Shown here: in pieces, positions 32,601 to 40,999 of the stretch | How the letters are laid out: every line of letters begins with the position of its first letter | How positions within the stretch are numbered: the first letter of the stretch is position 1 | Assembly: GCA_905178155.1 (NCBI GenBank) | Contig: CAJINV010000001.1 | Location: 2,842,089-2,906,088 of the forward strand | DNA length: 64,000 nt | DNA from: Amoebophrya sp. A120 | Lineage: Eukaryota > Protista > Dinoflagellata | Direction: 5' to 3' | Notes under the pieces: model-generated | Seen by the model: only the letters and a program-made list of their open reading frames with translations | The model's database searches: none | What the model was told of the DNA's origin: nothing | Program-made: the position numbers and the translations under genes

Positions 32601-33350
32601 GAATTCAATACGGAGAAAGTGGCCGTTGCCGTCCTCGCCATCTGATGACGATGATTCTCTTCTCTGGTTAACTGGCTCCGCAGCGGCTGGCTCCTCCTCT
32701 TCTTCGTGTTCTGGTGGTGGGGCCTCGCCACTCGCTGCTACTGGCGCGGCCTGGTTATTTTGCAAGACACAACATGATTATTTCGAGAACGAGGAGGGAA
32801 TCAATGGAATGGCTGTCCTTCCATACCTCCAAGCGCTTCGTCGACGCAGAAAAAGACATGCCGACTCACCCACTCGAGTGCGAGTCAGAGAGTAAGAAGT
32901 AGAATTCACGACATGTACCTCATCCGGTTCTGCCGTAGCACCAGCTTCTACTGTGACCGCCGGTTCCTCTGCTGCTGCTGTCGCACTGTCAGCTTCTTCT
33001 ATTATCTGCGGAATCGGCTCTGTAGTTGGCTCCTCCGCGGCCACTGCAGTTGTACTATCCCCTGCAGCATCTTCTGCTGGTGCTGGTGGTGAGTCAGGAT
33101 CTCTTGCTGGCGCTTCCGCGGCCTCTGGATCCGCCGGAGCGGGCTCTGTTGTTTCCGCGGCCGGTTCAACAGTAGCCGGCGCTTCCGTTTCTGCTGCCGG
33201 CTCTTCTTCTGCAGGAGCCGCTTCAGGAGCGACTGCGACGTCAGCAGCGGGCTCGACTGCGGCATCAACATCAGCAGTGGAGGCTTCTGGTACTGGAGTA
33301 GTCTCTTCCGCAGGGGCTTCTGCGGCCGGTGTTTCCTCTTCTTCAGCCAT
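29655..33350 (-). CDS. Coiled-coil protein with acidic Ala/Glu/Pro-rich N-terminus; about 6 GT-AG introns and 4 introners
   Basis: ATG at 33350 (MAEEEETP). GT-AG introns include 32478-32611, 31814-31973, 30549-30649 and 29967-30161. Introner joins AASVGID, PAFDLEKL, VRDVWKD and DLELEKK. Confidence 0.75.
30248..30425. mobile_element. Introner, TIR family C (178 bp)
   Basis: TATCACACAGAAAAAAGCTGGCAGG ... CCTGCCAGCTTTTTTCTGTGGGATA, with the inverted repeat extending inward (TTTGTAATGCAAAAATAA); repeat TTCCA. Confidence 0.9.
30973..31233. mobile_element. Introner, family A (261 bp)
   Basis: TATGAATTGCAAATGTGTCTGGGTCTG ... CAGACCCAGACATTTTTGCATTTGATA; repeat TCCCA/TCCCT. Confidence 0.87.
31281..31604. 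mobile_element. Introner, TIR family D (324 bp)
   Basis: TATCGTATGGAAAAATCCCCCTTCCC ... GGGGAGGGGGATTTTTCATTTTGATA; repeat TCAAA; homologous to 54001-54335. Confidence 0.88.
32124..32392. mobile_element. Introner, family A (269 bp)
   Basis: TATCAAATGCAAAAGTGTCTGGCTCTGGAAG ... CTTCCAGACCCAGACATATTTGCATTTGATA; repeat ACGGA. Confidence 0.9.
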
Positions 33351-33961
33351 TTTGACAGTAAACACCGGAAGCGAGAAGTAGAGCAATAGAGTTTATTCCG
33401 ACGTCCCGTCGCAGCTATCAAATCATTTCAAAATTGATCATACGAATGAGATCTCCGCTTCCGCTTCTACGTCCACCGAACAAGCACCACCAGCTCTCCT
33501 CTACTCAGTTTATCTCCTCTCGCATCGAAATCTCGCATGAAACCACAACGGTCAAGATCTTACAACTTGTTCACTACAAACATTCATATTATTAAATCGA
33601 CTGCAAAAAGAAAACATATTTCACATGTGGCAGCCATCCTGCGGCTGCGCCAGCCCTTCTGCGGCTGCGGGTTGTAGTTAGTTTGGGTCGTCTTCATGTT
33701 TCTCCATACGGCGTCGGTGTACAAAAGGAACACAAAAACAGGAGGCGGAAACAGGAGGGTTATTATATTGTTTTATTCGGTCGTCCTATCGCTTTTGTAC
33801 AACATTGGAGATTCATCAGAATGTTGTTCTAGTGTTACGTAGAAGGTTTTAAGTACATTGCTTTCAAGTCGACGTGTTGAACTGTACAATCGAAGAACGG
33901 TGCGTAGTACAAAGAATCAAGATTTTCATACAAAGAAGAGGTGTACTAGTGTAGAAACCGA

Positions 33962-36900
33962 TCACACATTCGCCACCGCTCCGTGCGCCTGTCTCCTCAT
34001 TCGTCTGACGACCTCGATGAAGAGGTGCATGGCTTCGATCCATAATGGCGAGTCAATGATTTGAAAGTACAGATCGACGGCGTTGCCTCCTTTCCTGCTG
34101 GTCAAGTACCGCAGACAAACGTAGTTTGGATGCTTCGGATCGGTTACCACCGCGCTTATGGTCAGGATGCTGCACAGTACCTGTTATTCGTATTTCAAAA
34201 AGTTGGTTGAAATTATCATGAGCAGAAAAGGAAAAGCATCTTCCCTTTTCGCATCGTACTATGGAACGACCAAACAAGCAGAGCACCAGAATGCAGCACC
34301 TTTGTAGTTAATACCTTCGCGTCACTAGTATCATTCGAGAGCCTATCTGCTTCCCGGTGGAAGATTCCGAAGTGCCACTTCAGTTTCCCGGCGCTTGTCT
34401 TCTTTTGAAACACGTTTGCAAATTTCGTCCTTGGTATTCCGAACCGCGATACCCACTTGACGCGCGCCTGCAACAACTGGCGCAATATCTTCAAAACCGC
34501 TTCGTACTCCGCGTTTCCCTTCAGATCCTTCATCGTCGCCAAGTGCTTGCTCATATCAACTGCAAATATGTCTGGGTCAGAGAGCTGTGGGGAAGTGAAA
34601 ACCGCAGAAAAAAAAAAAAACCTAAGTACTTTGACAGGATGAACTAGTACAAATAATCCCGCAGATATAGCTTAGTGGAGCAACCTCAAACGGTCTTGGT
34701 GGCAGAAGTTCCCCTGTCTGCGAACTGCTGAACCCGTTCTCCAGCCGGCGCCTGCAGAGCCGGGCGCGTCTTCCGAAGGGTGTGCCGCAGCGGGATGAGG
34801 CAAACCAGGACAGGGTCCTCTCCCGTCCTCGCCCCGCACGCGACGGGAATAATAGCCACCTCGATACTACAGAGACGCTTCGACAGTTCCGGAAGAGCGG
34901 AGGTGTTTCTAGTTCTTGATTGCGCGCTGGTGGAAGACGCAGCAAATGGAAATGATCCGTCCGCAGTTGTAGTTCTTCTTCTTTGGGCAGCTGCAGCAGG
35001 TGCTGGCGACGAAGTAACTGGGGGCTGCGCGGGGCCTGCACGGGGCACCAAGCCACTAGCGCCCCGCAGGAACGGCATTCGGATGTTTTGACTGTCGAAC
35101 TGGGCGGTGGCTCGGCCGAGGATTGCGGCTTCTTCCCGAAACCGCGTTGACACGAACTTGGGGTCGTTCCAGTACAGCGCGCTGCGCCGCGCGGTCCTCG
35201 TGCGGAGCCTAGACCGCTCGTCGCAAAACTTGCGGCATTTCCAAATAAGCGGACTCGGCGGCTCCGTCTGGATGCGGTGTAGCCGCTCGTTCCGGCGACG
35301 GACGTGCTTCTGCGGGCCTGCCTCTGTGCCGGCAGGTCGTTGTTCACAAGTAGATTGCTCCATCCCTCCTGAGGAAGTGGAACCCGAACCGGCAACCGTC
35401 GTGGTGGCCACAGCTTCATCGACACCGGAGAAAGGTTGTAGCCGTTTCCCCTGGCAGATGCTTTTGATCGTTCGGCCCTCCACACTGTCGGAGGTCCGCA
35501 ATCGGTACAGGTCCTTCCAGCCGTCCATGGCATGCACGATCGTTTCGGTCTTGCAGTGCAAAAAGCACGCGTCGGGATGCACGCAGTCGGCGGAACAAGC
35601 ACCGCCGTCCTGTTCCACCTGGTGCTGACACAGATCCTCAAGAAACACGTTCAGGTCCGCCTTAATCCCGCGGAACTCGTCCTTTCCCTCCTCTGGGTCC
35701 ACGGTGAACCGCCGCCAGCGCAGCATCAGCTGCTCCAACATTTCGGCAACGTCTTCTTCCGGCTCCTCCAGACAACTGGCGCTTTGGCCCGCACCAAGTA
35801 GTGCCCTCTGTGGGTCTCCGAGCGACACGGCCGGGTGGTAGGGTTGCAGCTGAAAATGTCCGTCACAAACGACAAGTGTTTCCACACAGGGCTGTTGCGT
35901 ACTACTACTAGACGGTTCTCGACGTACACTGGAGGTGCCTGTAGTTGTACTATCCGGAAACCGCAGACGGGAAACGAAGCAGATGCTGTACCAGTTTGGT
36001 GGATTCTTGGCGTGCTTCTCGTAGAATCGTGCCTCCTTGTATGTCCGCAGCTCGTCGTGATAAATCGGTCGCGTCCCGTGCTTCCCGGAGACCAGGAACG
36101 GCTTCTGCTTCAAAAACTTGTCACTGAAACAGAACAACGGAAAAGCCACTAGCGTTGGCCTCAGGTGGGCGTGTCCTCTCCTTGCTGCGCGGGCCAGGGC
36201 CATTGTCTTCGCGTGGTGCGCGGACCTACGCCGCCCGCCTGCGCGGTCTCGGTCATCATCCGAGTCTTCCTCGTCCCGATCGGTCGTGGTCTCGGGGCTC
36301 GACGGCGGCTCCGAGTCGCTCGCCGTGTCCGCATCTTCGAGCCGTGGAGGTAGCGTGTACATCTTCTTTCCCTGATCCACACAGAACTTGGCGACGCGGT
36401 CCAGCGTGACGCCGGGGGAAACTGACGAGCTCGCGCTATTCAGCCGCAACTGGGACATCCTAGTGCACTTCCAACCACGTTTCGACCTATCCCCGGGGAC
36501 CGGAATGAACTCGTTTTGGGGCTCCCGCAGTTTGCAGTCAATCACTAGTGGGCTGGAGCACAGCTTGTACGTGCGCGGCGGGTATCTTGTTGTCCTTCCG
36601 ACTGAGCGGGGTGAAACAGAACTGCCCCGCCCCGGGCTGGTGTCGTCCCCTGCTCCGGACGAAGTACCACAAGGCGCCAACGTGCACACGCATGTCAATT
36701 CGTGAAACGGGACCTGTGGATCCCACACTCGCGCGTGATCGTCCCGCTCAATCCATTCGCCCATAGGCGACACACGGATGCGGAAGATGTAGGGCTGGGG
36801 GCAAGGATCGTGCTCGGCCGCCGCCACGTCGGAACGACGACCGCCATGTCGTGTGCTCTGTTCCTGGCTCGGGGAGAACGTCGTGCCGCGGGCTAGAGGC

Positions 36901-39900
36901 CTCGCCGACGTTGCAGCGCTCGCCCCCAGTGGGATTTCATCCGGACTGTCAGCAGGGGCACGATCACGAACGGCGCCAGGCTGGACACGACGTCCGAATT
37001 GCGAAGAACGCGCCCGAAATCGTCCCCCGCTTGCTTCCCCGGAACTGCCAACAGTCGCGGCCGCGCAAAAAAAACTGACAAAAACAGTCGCGCCCGCACA
37101 AAAAATTCTCATGTGAGAAAACATTTCTTCTTCATTACAAAACACAACAGATAAGGATATTTTTCCACGTAGAAAAAATTAAAATAATAATAGAAAATAA
37201 GCACGACAGCCCTGTCAAGAATTTTCAAGTCGTCCTGGAAATTTAGGAAGGCATGTGCAAGAAACCAATTGTGTGCTCGCTTCTTCAGGCGAGCGAGTTA
37301 CTGTCTAACGTACTATCTATATTCCTGCTTGTAAGTAGCTGACAGCCAGTGTCTCAACCGGTTGTCACCAAGATCTGGAGAAACACCGCCCGTTTTAGTG
37401 GTGAACCAACAGACCTGGGGAGTTGCCTGAGAGAAAGTGAGCCGAGACCCGCAATCACCCCTGGCTTCAGAACCAGGCACTACTACCGCCTCCGTAGTGC
37501 TTCGATCAGCCTCCGCATAGCCACAGGGTCCAAAACAAGCCGCCTCTGCTTGCCCTTCCCTGCGTCAGAACAGGTGCTATAGAAATGACAGGTCCTAAGC
37601 AAGACTCCTCTTCTTGCCCTTCCTGCCTGCGCCACCTGAGCCGAGGCTCTGGTAGCGGTACGCTGACGCCGCCGGGAGACGCAGGAAAACACGGAGTTAT
37701 ACCCTGCACCGCCCAACTACCTCCCTAAAACCCTTTACCCTACCCTTAAACCAAAGATGTTGAAAGAAAATATTTACTTCGATTTTTTGATGTTTCGCTT
37801 GAAAGCGTCAGCACTTCAAGCACATTTTAAGACATATATTTGCTAGTGTAGTATGTGCCCTAAGACCGAAATATTTCTTTTCAGCTAGTACAAAAGAAAA
37901 TGAAAGCGTAAGCTAAGTTGTATTGAAATTGAAAATCCTTCAGAATGTTTAAAGATAAAGTGGTATCAATAATAAGTAAAGGATCAAGCGAAGTACTGAT
38001 GACGATGATGCTTTCGGGCCCGGCTCGGCACTAGTCCCTCTTCCGCGTCCGAAGCGCAGCAGTGAAATTCTATTTTGCCTGTGAGAAAATTGATTATGTG
38101 CATGCTATCGTCCGGGTCATCCATGATATTTTTAAGTAACTCTTTTTCGTAGTTCTTCATGTTTTTTTTCTTTAACTACAAATCTCGCACGGTGGATTTC
38201 GACGCGTTTGGTGGAGCGGTGATGTCCGAAGCACTAACGCGCTCGAGCTAAAACTGCGAGAAAGTTCGGTAACGACATCAGATCGTGTTGCTATTTGTAA
38301 AGAAAAAATAGCATTTTATCTCTTCTTCGTGCTTAGCTGGTGCAGCTGAAGCTTTTCAAGAGAGAGAGAGAGAGAGATCAAGTTTTTCTCCAACGACAGT
38401 ATACTTTTTGTAGTCAACGACCTCGACATGCTAGTCTGGTATGACTCTGAGATCTGTATCGCGTTGCCGCGAAGAGCTTCTCCTGCCTGTCATGCAAAAA
38501 CAGAGTTTCTCATCATGCGGGTTACGCAACTCCGAACAACGGAAAAACTTTAACTTGTCAAACATGCTTGGCAGCGCATTACAGGGCACTCACTATTCGT
38601 ATTCCCCTCCTTCCATCACAAGTTTCCAGACCCAGACAGGTTTACAGTGCATAGCTCACTTCCGCGGCGACCGGAGCGCTGATCGGGTGCTCGATGAAAT
38701 GCTCAAGCCTGGTGATTATCAACCGTAAAAATGTCTGGGTCTGGAAGAATGCATGTTTGTCATGCTTGTCTGGCATGACTATTAAATCTGTCATGCATGT
38801 TGCCCAAGAGCCGCATTTTTCTGTCATGCGGAGACGCAATTTGTCATGCAGAATAGGCAACACCTACAAGCTCAGAAACTTCTCATGGTGAGCCAGCACT
38901 TGTGGCCTCCTCATGCTACGCCACTCAGCATCACAAGTTTCCAGACCCAGACATTTTTACAGTTGATAGTGATCTCGTCGGAAGATTGCTTGTCCACGTC
39001 TGCCTTGTACTGGATACTTAGCACTACTTTCCCCGACTGAAAGCTGTCCGTAATCGCACTGCCGTCCGCTTTTTTCACGACCGAAAACGCCTCGTGGCGG
39101 ACGCAGCCGAAGGAACGACGGGCAATCACCATCTCCATCACATCCAGTATCCGGTGCGCCATACGGTGCTTCGTGCGGAATAAACCGCCCGTGACGACCC
39201 AAACCTGAGGATTCATCGAGATTGATTTTAACTTTTGATGCTCAACAAATAAAACCATTTCTGTTCTTTCATCAAAAAAACTTTTCAAAAATTTTGCAGC
39301 ACATGCAGCAGTGGGCAAACTAACTGTACTGCGTCTGATATCATTTTCGATGTTTCATAATTTCCAGTACCTCTATCACGATGCTTCTGTATCCCTGCAA
39401 TATCCTGACGTCAAGCGGCTTTTCAATGACCCCGTTTTTGCTGTCCGGCGTCCAGTAGTCCTTGCCCCCAGCGATGATTTTCACGCTATACACCCCCTTG
39501 TCCTCCGGGTGGGGGTTCAGCATCTTCAAACTGTGCACGTTGATCACCAAATCAATCGCCTGAAACTTGTCCCAGCCAATGGAGAAGAGGAAGTTCTTGA
39601 TTGCCGGGAACCTCCGCCAGTTCAGGTGGCACAGACAGCAAAGGAAGCAGAAAAACAGGAAGGACAGGACGAAGAGGTGAGCAATGTTCAACGGACCCAC
39701 GATCGGTCGGGTCACCCCGCAGAGGTCCCAACTTGGTGACGGGTGGTGGTTGGTTCCGAAGTGGACGGGGTGCGTTTCACCGTGAGCGGCGGCGGCTGCA
39801 GCCTCTTCCAGGTGTTCTTCTGTGCCGGGAGGCACCGGCATCACGTGCAAGTGAAGGTGGGAATGGGAAAAAGCGTTTTCGAATTTATTTCGGGTTTGTT

Positions 39901-40225
39901 TCGCTACTTGTTCCCCTTGGTGAACTTGCACCGCCGAGGAGGAGGATGAATAGGCGGATGATGTTGAGGGAGCTGATGGCGACGTTCCGATTTCTAGTGG
40001 TGTGCGACCGGCTGATACTCGTCCTGCGTGGTGAGTGATCCGTGAAGATGCCGATGCGGCCGGTACAGTTGTTGCTGACGATCCAACGTCCTCGAGGCCG
40101 CCCCTCGTCGTCCTTTCTCCTTCATGAAGATCGCGGTTCTGTTCAGCAAAAGAGGATGCTTCTGCAGGAGCTTCGCCAACGATGTCCGGAGACAGGCGCA
40201 TCGTCGCTCTCGTGACTTTGAACAT
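33962..40225 (-). CDS. Hydrophobic segment + C2 + PH-like protein resembling apicomplexan CERLI1/RASP rhoptry-surface proteins; contains 2 introners, one of 4.1 kb
   Basis: Assembled from 39341-40225 (C2-like IDLVINVHSLK...EKPLDVRILQGYRSIVIEV), the 38969-39205 region, a short exon 38654-38716, 34216-34554 and the last exon ending at 33962 (PH-like ILTISAVVTDP...LWIEAMHLFIEVVR). Family call is from remembered domain architecture. Confidence 0.6.
34686..37145 (-). CDS. Intronless hypothetical protein (819 aa) nested inside the giant introner; N-terminal hydrophobic signal-like segment
   Basis: Uninterrupted ORF with N-terminal MRIFCAGATVFVSFFCAAATVGSS and Cys/His-rich patches. No recognisable transposase motif. 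Confidence 0.65.
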   Translation of the reverse strand: MFCNEEEMFSHMRIFCAGATVFVSFFCAAATVGSSGEASGGRFRARSSQFGRRVQPGAVRDRAPADSPDEIPLGASAATSARPLARGTTFSPSQEQSTRHGGRRSDVAAAEHDPCPQPYIFRIRVSPMGEWIERDDHARVWDPQVPFHELTCVCTLAPCGTSSGAGDDTSPGRGSSVSPRSVGRTTRYPPRTYKLCSSPLVIDCKLREPQNEFIPVPGDRSKRGWKCTRMSQLRLNSASSSVSPGVTLDRVAKFCVDQGKKMYTLPPRLEDADTASDSEPPSSPETTTDRDEEDSDDDRDRAGGRRRSAHHAKTMALARAARRGHAHLRPTLVAFPLFCFSDKFLKQKPFLVSGKHGTRPIYHDELRTYKEARFYEKHAKNPPNWYSICFVSRLRFPDSTTTGTSSVRREPSSSSTQQPCVETLVVCDGHFQLQPYHPAVSLGDPQRALLGAGQSASCLEEPEEDVAEMLEQLMLRWRRFTVDPEEGKDEFRGIKADLNVFLEDLCQHQVEQDGGACSADCVHPDACFLHCKTETIVHAMDGWKDLYRLRTSDSVEGRTIKSICQGKRLQPFSGVDEAVATTTVAGSGSTSSGGMEQSTCEQRPAGTEAGPQKHVRRRNERLHRIQTEPPSPLIWKCRKFCDERSRLRTRTARRSALYWNDPKFVSTRFREEAAILGRATAQFDSQNIRMPFLRGASGLVPRAGPAQPPVTSSPAPAAAAQRRRTTTADGSFPFAASSTSAQSRTRNTSALPELSKRLCSIEVAIIPVACGARTGEDPVLVCLIPLRHTLRKTRPALQAPAGERVQQFADRGTSATKTV
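37340..37752. repeat. Dispersed structured repeat ending in a degenerate telomere-like tract; homologous segment at about 3150-3265
   Basis: Shared blocks with 3156-3262: CACCGCCCGTTTTAG, ACCT..GGGAGTT(T)GCCT and a GC(C)ACTAC...CCGT(A/G)G hairpin. Ends CCCTAAAACCCTTTACCCTACCCTTAAACC. Confidence 0.5.
38717..38968. mobile_element. Introner, family A subfamily (252 bp)
   Basis: TATCAACCGTAAAAATGTCTGGGTCTGGAA ... TTCCAGACCCAGACATTTTTACAGTTGATA; repeat GTGAT; join DEITRLEHF. Confidence 0.92.
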
Positions 40226-40999
40226 GAGGTGGATGAGACCGGCAAAGCCGAGACACTTGCGACTTGAAGTTCTGTCCTGTGTTCTACAATAGTTTCGTAA
40301 GTAAATTATTGCTCTAGTGCAACTAGAAACCAGCCCCGTGCTTCTTGAGGCAACTTCTACGAGATTCTACTTTGTCAATACTTACAATAGATTTTATTTC
40401 CGCCGCGGACAAGATTCGCGTTCCAGATATATTTTTCCGTACATCGTGTAATCACAGAGGGAAAACCACGAACGAAATTATACGACTGCGATGGCGAAGA
40501 TACGAGTCTGCCTCTGCGTTCTTGAAACCTTGCATGAGCGACAGCTTGCTGCGAAAGAGCGACAACGAATACTTCTACGACCGAGGAGAGAACTCGCTCA
40601 CTTCTGATCGAAAGACTGAGTTCGAAAGCAGAGCGTGATGGGGATAGAAAGAAACGATCTACGAAGACGATGTGACGAGACAATGACGAAAGATGATTTC
40701 TAGCAGTAATTGCAACACAGGCGGGGGCACCAGCGCCAGACAACGTGGACAAAAGATTAACAGTTGGTGGGCTACCGCAACCGCAAGGACAAAGAAATGC
40801 GCTGCTAGGAGCCCGAACATGCCCTCCGCCATCAGCGATGAGATTAACATTAGACAGCGGAAGCAAAGATTTTGGTACTTGTCTGTCATTGTCTTCGAAA
40901 CAGGTTTAGCTCAGGGAAGCGAAACATTTGTCTGGCTCGGTCTTTTTTTATTCTCTGAAAACAACATGGCGAGAAAAGCAAAAAGAGAATAATCCATCA

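Follow-up and report, generated by a model that had tools for sequence, protein, structure and literature searches.

We know of no account of how the thousands of non-GT-AG, hairpin-ended introns of Amoebophrya are removed. The introner elements of Amoebophrya sp. A25 and A120 were characterized by Farhat et al. in 2021 in an analysis that kept introns of 40-1000 bp, and, according to the sections of that paper drawn on here, the A120 annotation was built on assembled transcripts, with noncanonical introns accepted where RNA-seq confirmed them (PMC7789003). Gozashti et al. (2025) distinguished 58 A120 introner families, mostly TIR DNA elements of ~250-300 bp, and the portion of their text used here holds that autonomous and nonautonomous copies can both make introns (PMC12130899). 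Several family rows in a supplementary table of that paper, on our reading of its unlabelled columns, span thousands of alignment columns, so long family members probably exist. Here we describe an A120 locus at which, with a probability that we put at about 0.7, a family-A introner in a CERLI1-like coding sequence was split by a 3,838-bp insert that came later, as DNA, and the composite is spliced out. The family-A introner would be a nonautonomous TIR element with a 5-bp target duplication, residing in host coding sequence.

An ordinary family-A introner in two pieces

With up to three mismatches allowed, the 16-nt family-A TIR core (ATGTCTGGGTCTGGAA) has 19 matches in the window, by which we mean the whole 64-kb stretch of A120 DNA that was analyzed, against 0.40 expected. 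Fourteen of the 19 form seven short pairs delimiting elements of 252-270 bp, and perfect 5-bp duplications flank six of these seven, the other matching at 4 of 5 positions. Three cores are stray (22305, 43555, and 53171), and the cores at 34568 (+) and 38624 (-) form a facing pair with 4.05 kb between them, bringing the window to eight TIR pairs. The family-A element is very abundant, and very many DNA contigs carry its TIR.

The long facing pair consists of a left TIR beginning at 34554 and a right TIR ending at 38653, which an earlier note, made from the sequence alone, had matched up as orphans. Their pairing is borne out by the arms 34554-34578 and 38629-38653, which are 80% complementary over 25 nt (20/25), and by the duplex of the composite's 40-nt ends, which reaches -34 to -35 kcal/mol, compared with shuffles at -14 to -17 and the seven short copies, measured in the same way, at -33 to -56. 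The composite element occupies 34554-38653 (4,100 bp, or 4,105 nt with one duplication), and the repeat GCTCA reported earlier at its two sides is found at 34549-34553, also the first bases of host exon 4, and at 38654-38658, also the last bases of host exon 3. The same pentamer at both ends, taken with the perfect duplications of the short relatives, points to one insertion event.

The left family-A end (34554-34588), recognized by core match, complementarity, and alignment, corresponds to element positions 1 to ~40, and the right part (38427-38653), which ends in the right TIR, to positions 44-252. The closest relative of the right part is the neighboring ordinary family-A introner at 38717-38968, a 252-bp element defined by its TIR pair, its duplication GTGAT, and its cut. 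When the TIR was left out, 38400-38613 aligned to the interior of this neighbor, as the earlier note had claimed for 38425-38653, with a score of 48 (z 13.2; 200 shuffles gave 16.2 ± 2.4, maximum 27), compared with z of only 0.9-4.3 against the other six short copies. The two pieces therefore make up one ordinary copy split just inside its left end, and the proposed interruption by ~3.8 kb stands. The split point lies 35-40 bp from the introner's left end, and the DNA that caused it carries a complete 812-codon gene.

TIRs that are repeated thousands of times invite mis-joins, and the 3.8 kb might in principle belong elsewhere and have been placed here by assembly error. We regard this as extremely improbable, since a mis-join would hardly be expected to produce matching GCTCA copies and a clean complementary split of one element, and DNA contigs bridge all four composite junctions: contigs of run X1 (33500-34845 and 37615-38629) cross 34553/34554, 34588/34589, and 38426/38427, and one of run X7 (38544-38743) crosses 38653/38654, although these contigs may be the assembly's own source data. 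Joints in X1 contigs from 34575-34578 to 38755 were considered as an empty site and rejected, because the other letters between the two sides mark them as other family copies.

The host gene and its in-frame join

The host gene lies on the minus strand at 33962-40225 and encodes a CERLI1-like PH-domain protein of 533 aa, an exact match to the public A120 protein CAD7923532.1. On the evidence of that match, its exons are 40225-39371, 39204-38974, 38716-38654, 34548-34315, and 34180-33962, the third of which (38654-38716, 63 nt) sits between two family-A introners. Cutting out 34549-38653 (4,105 nt) together with introns of 166, 257, and 134 nt recreates 533 of 533 residues, including ...PVAAEVSKHLATMK..., and the in-frame join predicted by the earlier note is exactly that of this public, transcript-based model. 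The limits of each host intron can move by a few bases with the product unchanged; the six equivalent cuts of the 4.1-kb intron (TA..GC, CT..AG, GC..GA, AG..TG, GA..AT, and TG..TA) include no GT-AG (0/6), and the neighboring 257-nt introner is likewise cut without GT-AG. Pfam PF23634 matches the host protein at residues 426-525 (36.2 bits against a gathering cut-off of 27, E 5.8e-9), placing the PH_CERLI1 domain downstream of the 4.1-kb join. A transcript-derived relative, P0006 (47% identity), is colinear over the join, where it reads AKLMSKHLG. Judged from these sequences, the composite, together with one duplication, likely leaves the host RNA as one noncanonical intron, and the idea that excision extends over kilobase spacing gains support from a public model that lacks the 4,105 nt and from the colinearity of P0006. 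The intron ends may be joined by TIR pairing, the model that Farhat et al. proposed in the relevant part of their paper (PMC7789003).

It is quite unlikely, in our estimation, that the 4.1 kb is not usefully removed in vivo, leaving a broken host gene with separate transcripts and a public model that is a chaining artefact. Such an artefact would need to hit exactly the cut defined by the target duplication and stay in frame, both halves of the protein are conserved and colinear with P0006, the domain downstream of the join included, and the neighboring 257-nt introner requires the same kind of cut. Contigs speak on both sides. No contig with the junction 38654/34553 was seen among those of the six runs covering the locus, in which cover is thin at 37712-38647 (X3-X6), and in X3, X4, and X6 the contigs continue uninterrupted from host exon 4 across the left TIR; against this, a spliced RNA contig of X5 ends exactly at 34553, where an X1 DNA contig continues. 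A second X5 contig matches as far as 38969 and then has another 83 letters, which could be the 63-nt exon and 20 nt of exon 4, and we take these X5 contig ends as a weak hint of the 4.1-kb junction. The upstream host exons at 39116-40500 are covered by X5 contigs but not by those of X3, X4, and X6. Assignment of X3-X6 to RNA is by guess only; all four show the 134-nt GT-AG joint that is absent from the DNA contig. Two raw RNA runs (X9 and X10) have no reads on the stretch and so provide no test of the junction.

The contigs also bear on how the gene inside the introner may be expressed. Those of X3 match 34608-37295 without a difference, and an X4 contig, which joins 33721-34177 to 34312-34845 and must therefore represent spliced RNA, extends over the end of the ORF, the left TIR, and host exons 4-5. 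The nested gene would have its own transcript, with a start near 37700, and this transcript may continue past the left TIR to include host exons 4-5, borrowing their GT-AG intron and 3' end. A contig spanning two genes is no proof of a single transcript, and the through-TIR contigs might stem from host pre-mRNA that had not been spliced and not from read-through.

The insert and its orphan gene

The insert that splits the element spans 34589-38426 (minus strand; 3,838 bp, its left edge uncertain by ~10 nt) and contains an ORF at 34686-37178(-), open for 830 codons and oriented like the host gene. The earlier note was right that this ORF is uninterrupted and ends at 34686, but its length of 819 aa needs revision: the first ATG lies at 37124-37122, so the protein likely has 812 aa. 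The resulting coding sequence (34686-37124, minus strand; 812 codons plus stop), drawn from the ORF and paralogue alignment, begins as the paralogue P0002 does and encodes a hydrophobic, signal-peptide-like N-terminus common to P0002. Its GC3 is 0.65, compared with 0.63-0.73 for the host exons, and the gene is absent from public protein sets. A complete gene thus lies between the TIRs, which shows the sheltering that the earlier note proposed; introners might also carry such genes, by movement of the composite.

Upstream of the coding sequence, RNA-run contigs carry a leader at 37125-37711 (minus strand), of which ~37295-37615 also occurs at other loci, and the upstream part of the insert follows at 37712-38426 (minus strand), known from sequence and contigs and containing (AG)9.5 at 38359-38377. 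A 40-nt stretch of the insert, 38246-38285, is common to other transcripts. The leader had been described as structured and telomere-like. Its folding is only modestly better than that of 20 shuffles (z -2.48), and the telomere likeness fell away: the G-tract motif at 37719-37751 on the minus strand (GGTTTAAGGGTAGGGTAAAGGGTTTTAGGGAGG) is not a true telomere repeat, none of the four window matches to two repeat units within three mismatches (2.71 expected) falling there. An Rfam search over 33000-40500 returned only one chance-level match, outside the element, and a bacterial promoter and terminator scan at the left boundary, of a kind not applicable to this organism, returned nothing.

The nested gene is one of a small family of orphans, for which Pfam has no match and no usable fold was obtained. 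A Pfam search of the ORF gave no family at E up to 1 and no transposase signature, a search of 1.84 billion representatives gave no relative except its own family, and the ESM Atlas gave no usable match; AF2 models had pLDDT of 37 without an alignment and 27 with a four-row alignment, too poor for a fold test. Paralogues lie on other A120 contigs (P0002, 72% identity; P0005, 66%), and a further locus (L002) matches weakly over 43 residues. Enclosure by TIRs was examined at one paralogue locus, the related contig L001, whose colinear part consists of 11 blocks separated by 10 introns, many of them introners, compared with 0 introns in the nested copy; dN/dS between the two is 0.52 over 634 codons. 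The four TIR cores of L001 all fall inside its introns and no TIR pair encloses the gene, a point that the earlier note had advised checking for paralogues of the ORF. Since this paralogue is an ordinary introner-rich gene outside any TIR pair, the nested ORF is a nested or captured cellular gene and not the mobilizing enzyme, in keeping with the earlier preference for cargo and with the signal-like N-terminus.

The same observations weigh on a very unlikely alternative, in which the 4.1-kb unit is an autonomous parent, the ORF its transposase, and the 250-bp introners derivatives by internal deletion. Its TIR-ORF-TIR layout, with short copies equivalent to the two ends of a long one, would suit a MITE-parent relation; the ORF family occurs in several dispersed copies found only in A120-like sequence, and no transposase is given for the A120 introners in the sections of PMC7789003 drawn on here. 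To these points are opposed the empty Pfam result, the confinement of matches to its own family, the hydrophobic N-terminus, the multi-intron, unenclosed L001 paralogue, and the presence of the long unit's interior in only one of the seven short copies in the window. DNA contigs exactly matching the ORF have a depth of 36-46, compared with a summed depth of ~3x10^5 over TIR bins, contig depth being no copy number.

For the cellular gene itself, we consider it likely that the insert arrived after the element, as DNA, by a break-repair type of insertion and not by transposition; no TIR or duplication was found at its edges, 34589 and 38426. One locus does not decide the order of element first and insert second, and the composite might have been put together at another site and arrived here whole. 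An unlikely alternative is a retrocopy, in which reverse transcription of a processed mRNA, from a family member rich in introners, supplied the DNA that inserted into the introner, its source accounting for the lack of introns. The contrast of 812 uninterrupted codons with the 10-intron paralogue agrees with copying through a processed mRNA no less well than with copying of DNA, and cDNA recycling has been described in dinoflagellates (Slamovits and Keeling 2008, as cited in PMC7789003), but most paralogue introns are TIR introners and so were possibly gained after duplication. Other features expected of a retrocopy were not found: the gene's 3' end lacks a poly(A), the A13 run on the plus strand at 34608-34620, 66 nt past the stop and of a length that differs between contigs, being T13 when read along the nested gene; no duplication flanks the insert; and the insert extends more than 700 bp further upstream than the last RNA contigs covering the leader. 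Nor does the insert contain a DinoSL relic when 3 mismatches in 15 nt are allowed, the whole window having two such matches against 2.66 expected.

Meaning of the locus and comparison with known systems

If a later DNA insertion into a spliced introner is the correct reading, an introner can make room within a coding exon for a second gene, apparently separately expressed. The locus also amounts to a natural experiment: ends paired at 20 of 25 positions and a 4.05-kb loop are apparently still compatible with precise removal, which sets limits for any end-pairing model. One unannotated gene is added to the A120 gene set, and the contrast between its intron-free copy and the 10-intron paralogue deserves a genome-wide census. 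We offer only as a speculation, unlikely as it stands, that introner ends act as a length-independent cut-out signal, which would let a coding exon take in kilobases of DNA, up to an entire working gene that brings its own start, while the host gene survives, that composites can be moved by a putative transposase of the family, and that the nested gene is kept introner-free. Composite units would then relocate genes by means of this transposase, and the lack of further introners in the nested gene (0, compared with 10 in the paralogue) would follow from inner TIRs competing with the outer pair.

In Pack-MULE type transduplication, TIR DNA transposons capture genes, usually as fragments, as moved copies. 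The composite resembles Pack-MULEs in holding foreign host DNA between the TIRs of a nonautonomous element but differs in that the gene is whole and no second copy at ≥95% identity was seen. Intron-nested genes, among them the intron-harbored genes of mirusviruses in the part of PMC12768974 considered here, likewise place a complete gene inside the intron of another; unlike in those cases, the intron here is a recognizable transposon copy with noncanonical ends, and the nested gene is co-oriented with its host, whose last exons it appears to use. The searched supplementary files of PMC12130899 make no mention of the host gene or of either paralogue, and the ORFs of family 38, which in the parts of that paper considered resemble integrases of LTR elements, contrast with the cellular-type orphan gene described here.

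The closest system is that of the Amoebophrya introner elements themselves, already known from the same organism. As presented in the sections of PMC7789003 compared here, they have inverted repeats of 8-20 nt at the intron ends, where the composite has 25-nt arms of 80% complementarity, and a 3-5-nt direct repeat over the boundaries, matched in the composite by GCTCA; like the composite, they lack GT-AG ends and an internal transposase and belong to families of many copies. The composite is set apart by its 4,100 bp, its more decayed TIRs (20/25), and the whole gene inside. This gene-bearing element falls outside the 40-1000 bp considered in the original study, a range that bounds that analysis and not the biology.

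The split family-A element

The window contains 19 matches to the TIR core of family A, its abundant short introner (0.40 expected), and 14 of these pair into seven ordinary elements of 252-270 bp, whose 5-bp target duplication is perfect in six and a 4/5 match in the remaining one. The core matches at 34568(+) and 38624(-) lie in opposed orientation without a close partner. The earlier note had read the orphan TIRs at 34554 and 38653 as the two ends of one split element, and this is borne out: the composite element (34554-38653) has GCTCA on each flank, and over its right 227 bp it aligns with the interior of the neighboring copy at 38717-38968 (z 13.2, 200 shuffles), with the other six short copies barely aligning to this stretch (z 0.9-4.3). 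Element positions 1-40 are represented in the left piece and positions 44-252 in the right. Together, the element ends, the GCTCA repeats, and the complementary pieces indicate that one ordinary copy was cleanly split by the 3,838-bp insert at 34589-38426, in which neither inverted ends nor a flanking duplication of its own were found. The composite ends, paired at 20 of 25 positions, have decayed further than the ends of the short copies, and their predicted duplex has an energy near -35 kcal/mol, where shuffles give about -14. The initial observation is confirmed, and its interpretation is essentially right. The two family-A copies most alike in sequence (38717-38968 and 34554-38653) share one gene and lie 63 bp apart, separated by a 63-nt exon; this proximity would be consistent with local hopping.

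Probable removal of the composite from the host message

Four introns of 166, 257, 4,105, and 134 nt were cut in silico from the CERLI1-like host gene (40225-33962(-)). GT-AG boundaries are possible for the 166-nt intron and present in the 134-nt intron. The 257-nt intron is the neighbor element plus its duplication, and no equivalent cut gives GT-AG; the 4,105-nt intron is the composite element plus GCTCA, and none of its six equivalent cut positions gives GT-AG. Translation after the four cuts matches the public host protein P0003 (CAD7923532.1, 533 aa) at 533 of 533 residues, and the in-frame join that had been predicted is reproduced letter for letter once the 4,105 nt are removed. According to the available text of PMC7789003, the public A120 annotation rests on assembled transcripts precisely because of the noncanonical introns, so the P0003 model implies a transcript with the 4,105-nt junction. 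The transcript-derived relative P0006, at 47% identity, is colinear across the join (AKLMSKHLG in P0006, AEV-SKHLA in the host protein).

The 134-nt GT-AG joint is present in all four presumed-RNA runs (X3-X6) and absent from the DNA contig, indicating that those runs hold spliced RNA; none of the contigs listed carries the 4.1-kb junction. One spliced X5 contig stops exactly at 34553, a position that a contig of DNA run X1 runs past, and a second X5 contig covers exons 1-2, with its window match ending at 38969 and 83 further letters beyond. These contig ends are weak hints of the 4.1-kb removal. All four junctions are bridged by contigs of DNA runs, possibly the same data as the assembly source. 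At 34548-34556(-), the TIR end plus duplication reads GATATGAGC, creating an ATG that shares the reading frame of host exon 4; judged from the sequence, this is a possible start, in unspliced or read-through RNA, for a short PH_CERLI1-only protein (MSKHLATMK...).

The nested gene and its putative transcripts

The frame at 34686-37178(-) is open over 830 codons. An uninterrupted ORF inside the introner had been claimed and stands, with a length that is more likely 812 aa than 819, counted from the first ATG at 37124, where the protein start resembles that of the paralogue P0002. Relatives encoded on other contigs are P0002 (781 aa, 72% identity), P0005 (838 aa, 66%), and the fragment P0004; the only full-length database relative is an "unnamed protein product [Amoebophrya sp. 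A120]", as is the exact match of the host gene. Public A120 entries for the family include CAD7949086.1 and CAD7966441.1. The exact protein is absent from a collection of 15 billion sequences, no further relatives were found among 1.84 billion representatives, Pfam gave no match, and the ESM Atlas gave no usable hit. The annotation pipeline retained one model per locus, according to the part of PMC7789003 available, which would explain why the nested gene is unannotated. AF2 models (pLDDT 37 and 27) were too poor for use; residues 7-25 are hydrophobic and signal-like. GC3 is similar to that of the host exons. Against the paralogue DNA of metagenome contig L001, dS is 0.37 and dN/dS 0.52 (634 codons), which marks the ORF as a fast-evolving yet constrained coding sequence.

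Contigs of X3 carry 34608-37295 with zero differences, and an X4 contig continues from the final 160 nt of the ORF through the left TIR into host exons 4-5 in spliced form. From these presumed-RNA contigs we infer expression of the nested gene, with transcripts that continue into the last host exons and borrow their intron and 3' end, although identical contigs would result from unspliced host pre-mRNA.

Part of the leader (37295-37615) also occurs at other places in the genome and coincides with breaks in the DNA contigs; it has no match in Rfam. Another RNA contig, of 4.4 kb, has 37531-37658 in common with six differences, and a 33-nt direct repeat lies within the leader at 37527 and 37591. 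Farther upstream, the 40 nt at 38246-38285 are common to other transcripts; X5 and X6 contigs containing them diverge from the window on both sides, and the segment is possibly an element that the paralogues share in their upstream regions.

The paralogue locus and known introners

The L001 copy matches parts of P0005 at 93-100% protein identity. Its coding sequence (L001:4600-10550) is colinear with window 34686-37124 in 11 blocks separated by 10 introns, against none in the nested copy. This contrast has three possible explanations: later gains in the paralogue only, selection against inner TIRs, or a processed-copy origin of the nested gene. The uninterrupted ORF would fit a processed copy, but the marks of a retrocopy are lacking: the sense strand carries T13 rather than poly(A), the insert has no flanking duplication, and it holds no spliced-leader relic. 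At least five introns of the paralogue locus have clear inverted ends, of several different families. Family-A copies lie at L001:3373-3632 and L001:4277-4510, and a 1,071-bp family-A introner (L001:8701-9771) lies within the paralogue gene. The earlier note had asked whether paralogues also sit inside TIR pairs, and here the answer is negative: no family-A pair in L001 encloses the gene. For this paralogue at least, the locus is that of an ordinary cellular gene under heavy invasion and not that of a transposon's passenger or engine. The 1,071-bp introner carries ~800 bp of extra sequence toward its right end, flanked by two copies of an ~18-nt repeat (AAACGTGCATGACAAGTC), with an A13 run before the second copy. 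The extra DNA looks like a retroposon-type insertion, and the copy would thus be another family-A intron that has been enlarged. At L001:4511-4700, ~70 nt that encode an N-terminal piece of the family (..AAATVDSSEH..) are duplicated in tandem. The P0001 and P0002 N-termini have no counterpart in approximately the first 110 aa of the annotated P0005, whose public model may therefore be fused to upstream exons.

Amoebophrya sp. A120 is a parasitic syndinian dinoflagellate. The available text of Farhat et al. 2021 (PMC7789003) describes its genome as rich in noncanonical introns, a subset of which are introner elements with 8-20-nt inverted repeats at their ends and 3-5-nt direct repeats over the boundaries; that intron analysis was limited to introns of 40-1000 bp. 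The composite shares the defining sequence features and is probably removed from RNA, but exceeds this length range. Gozashti et al. 2025 (PMC12130899), in the text available, report 58 introner families in A120 and note that introns can arise from both autonomous and nonautonomous copies; the ORFs described there resemble integrases. The host gene and paralogues are not named in the accessible parts of its supplementary files. On introners together with nested genes, the accessible literature yielded only PMC12768974 and a 2012 review; genes within introns are described, in the accessible text of PMC12768974, as common among eukaryotes and as abundant in mirusviruses. The composite is a kilobase-scale, gene-bearing member of the known introner class.
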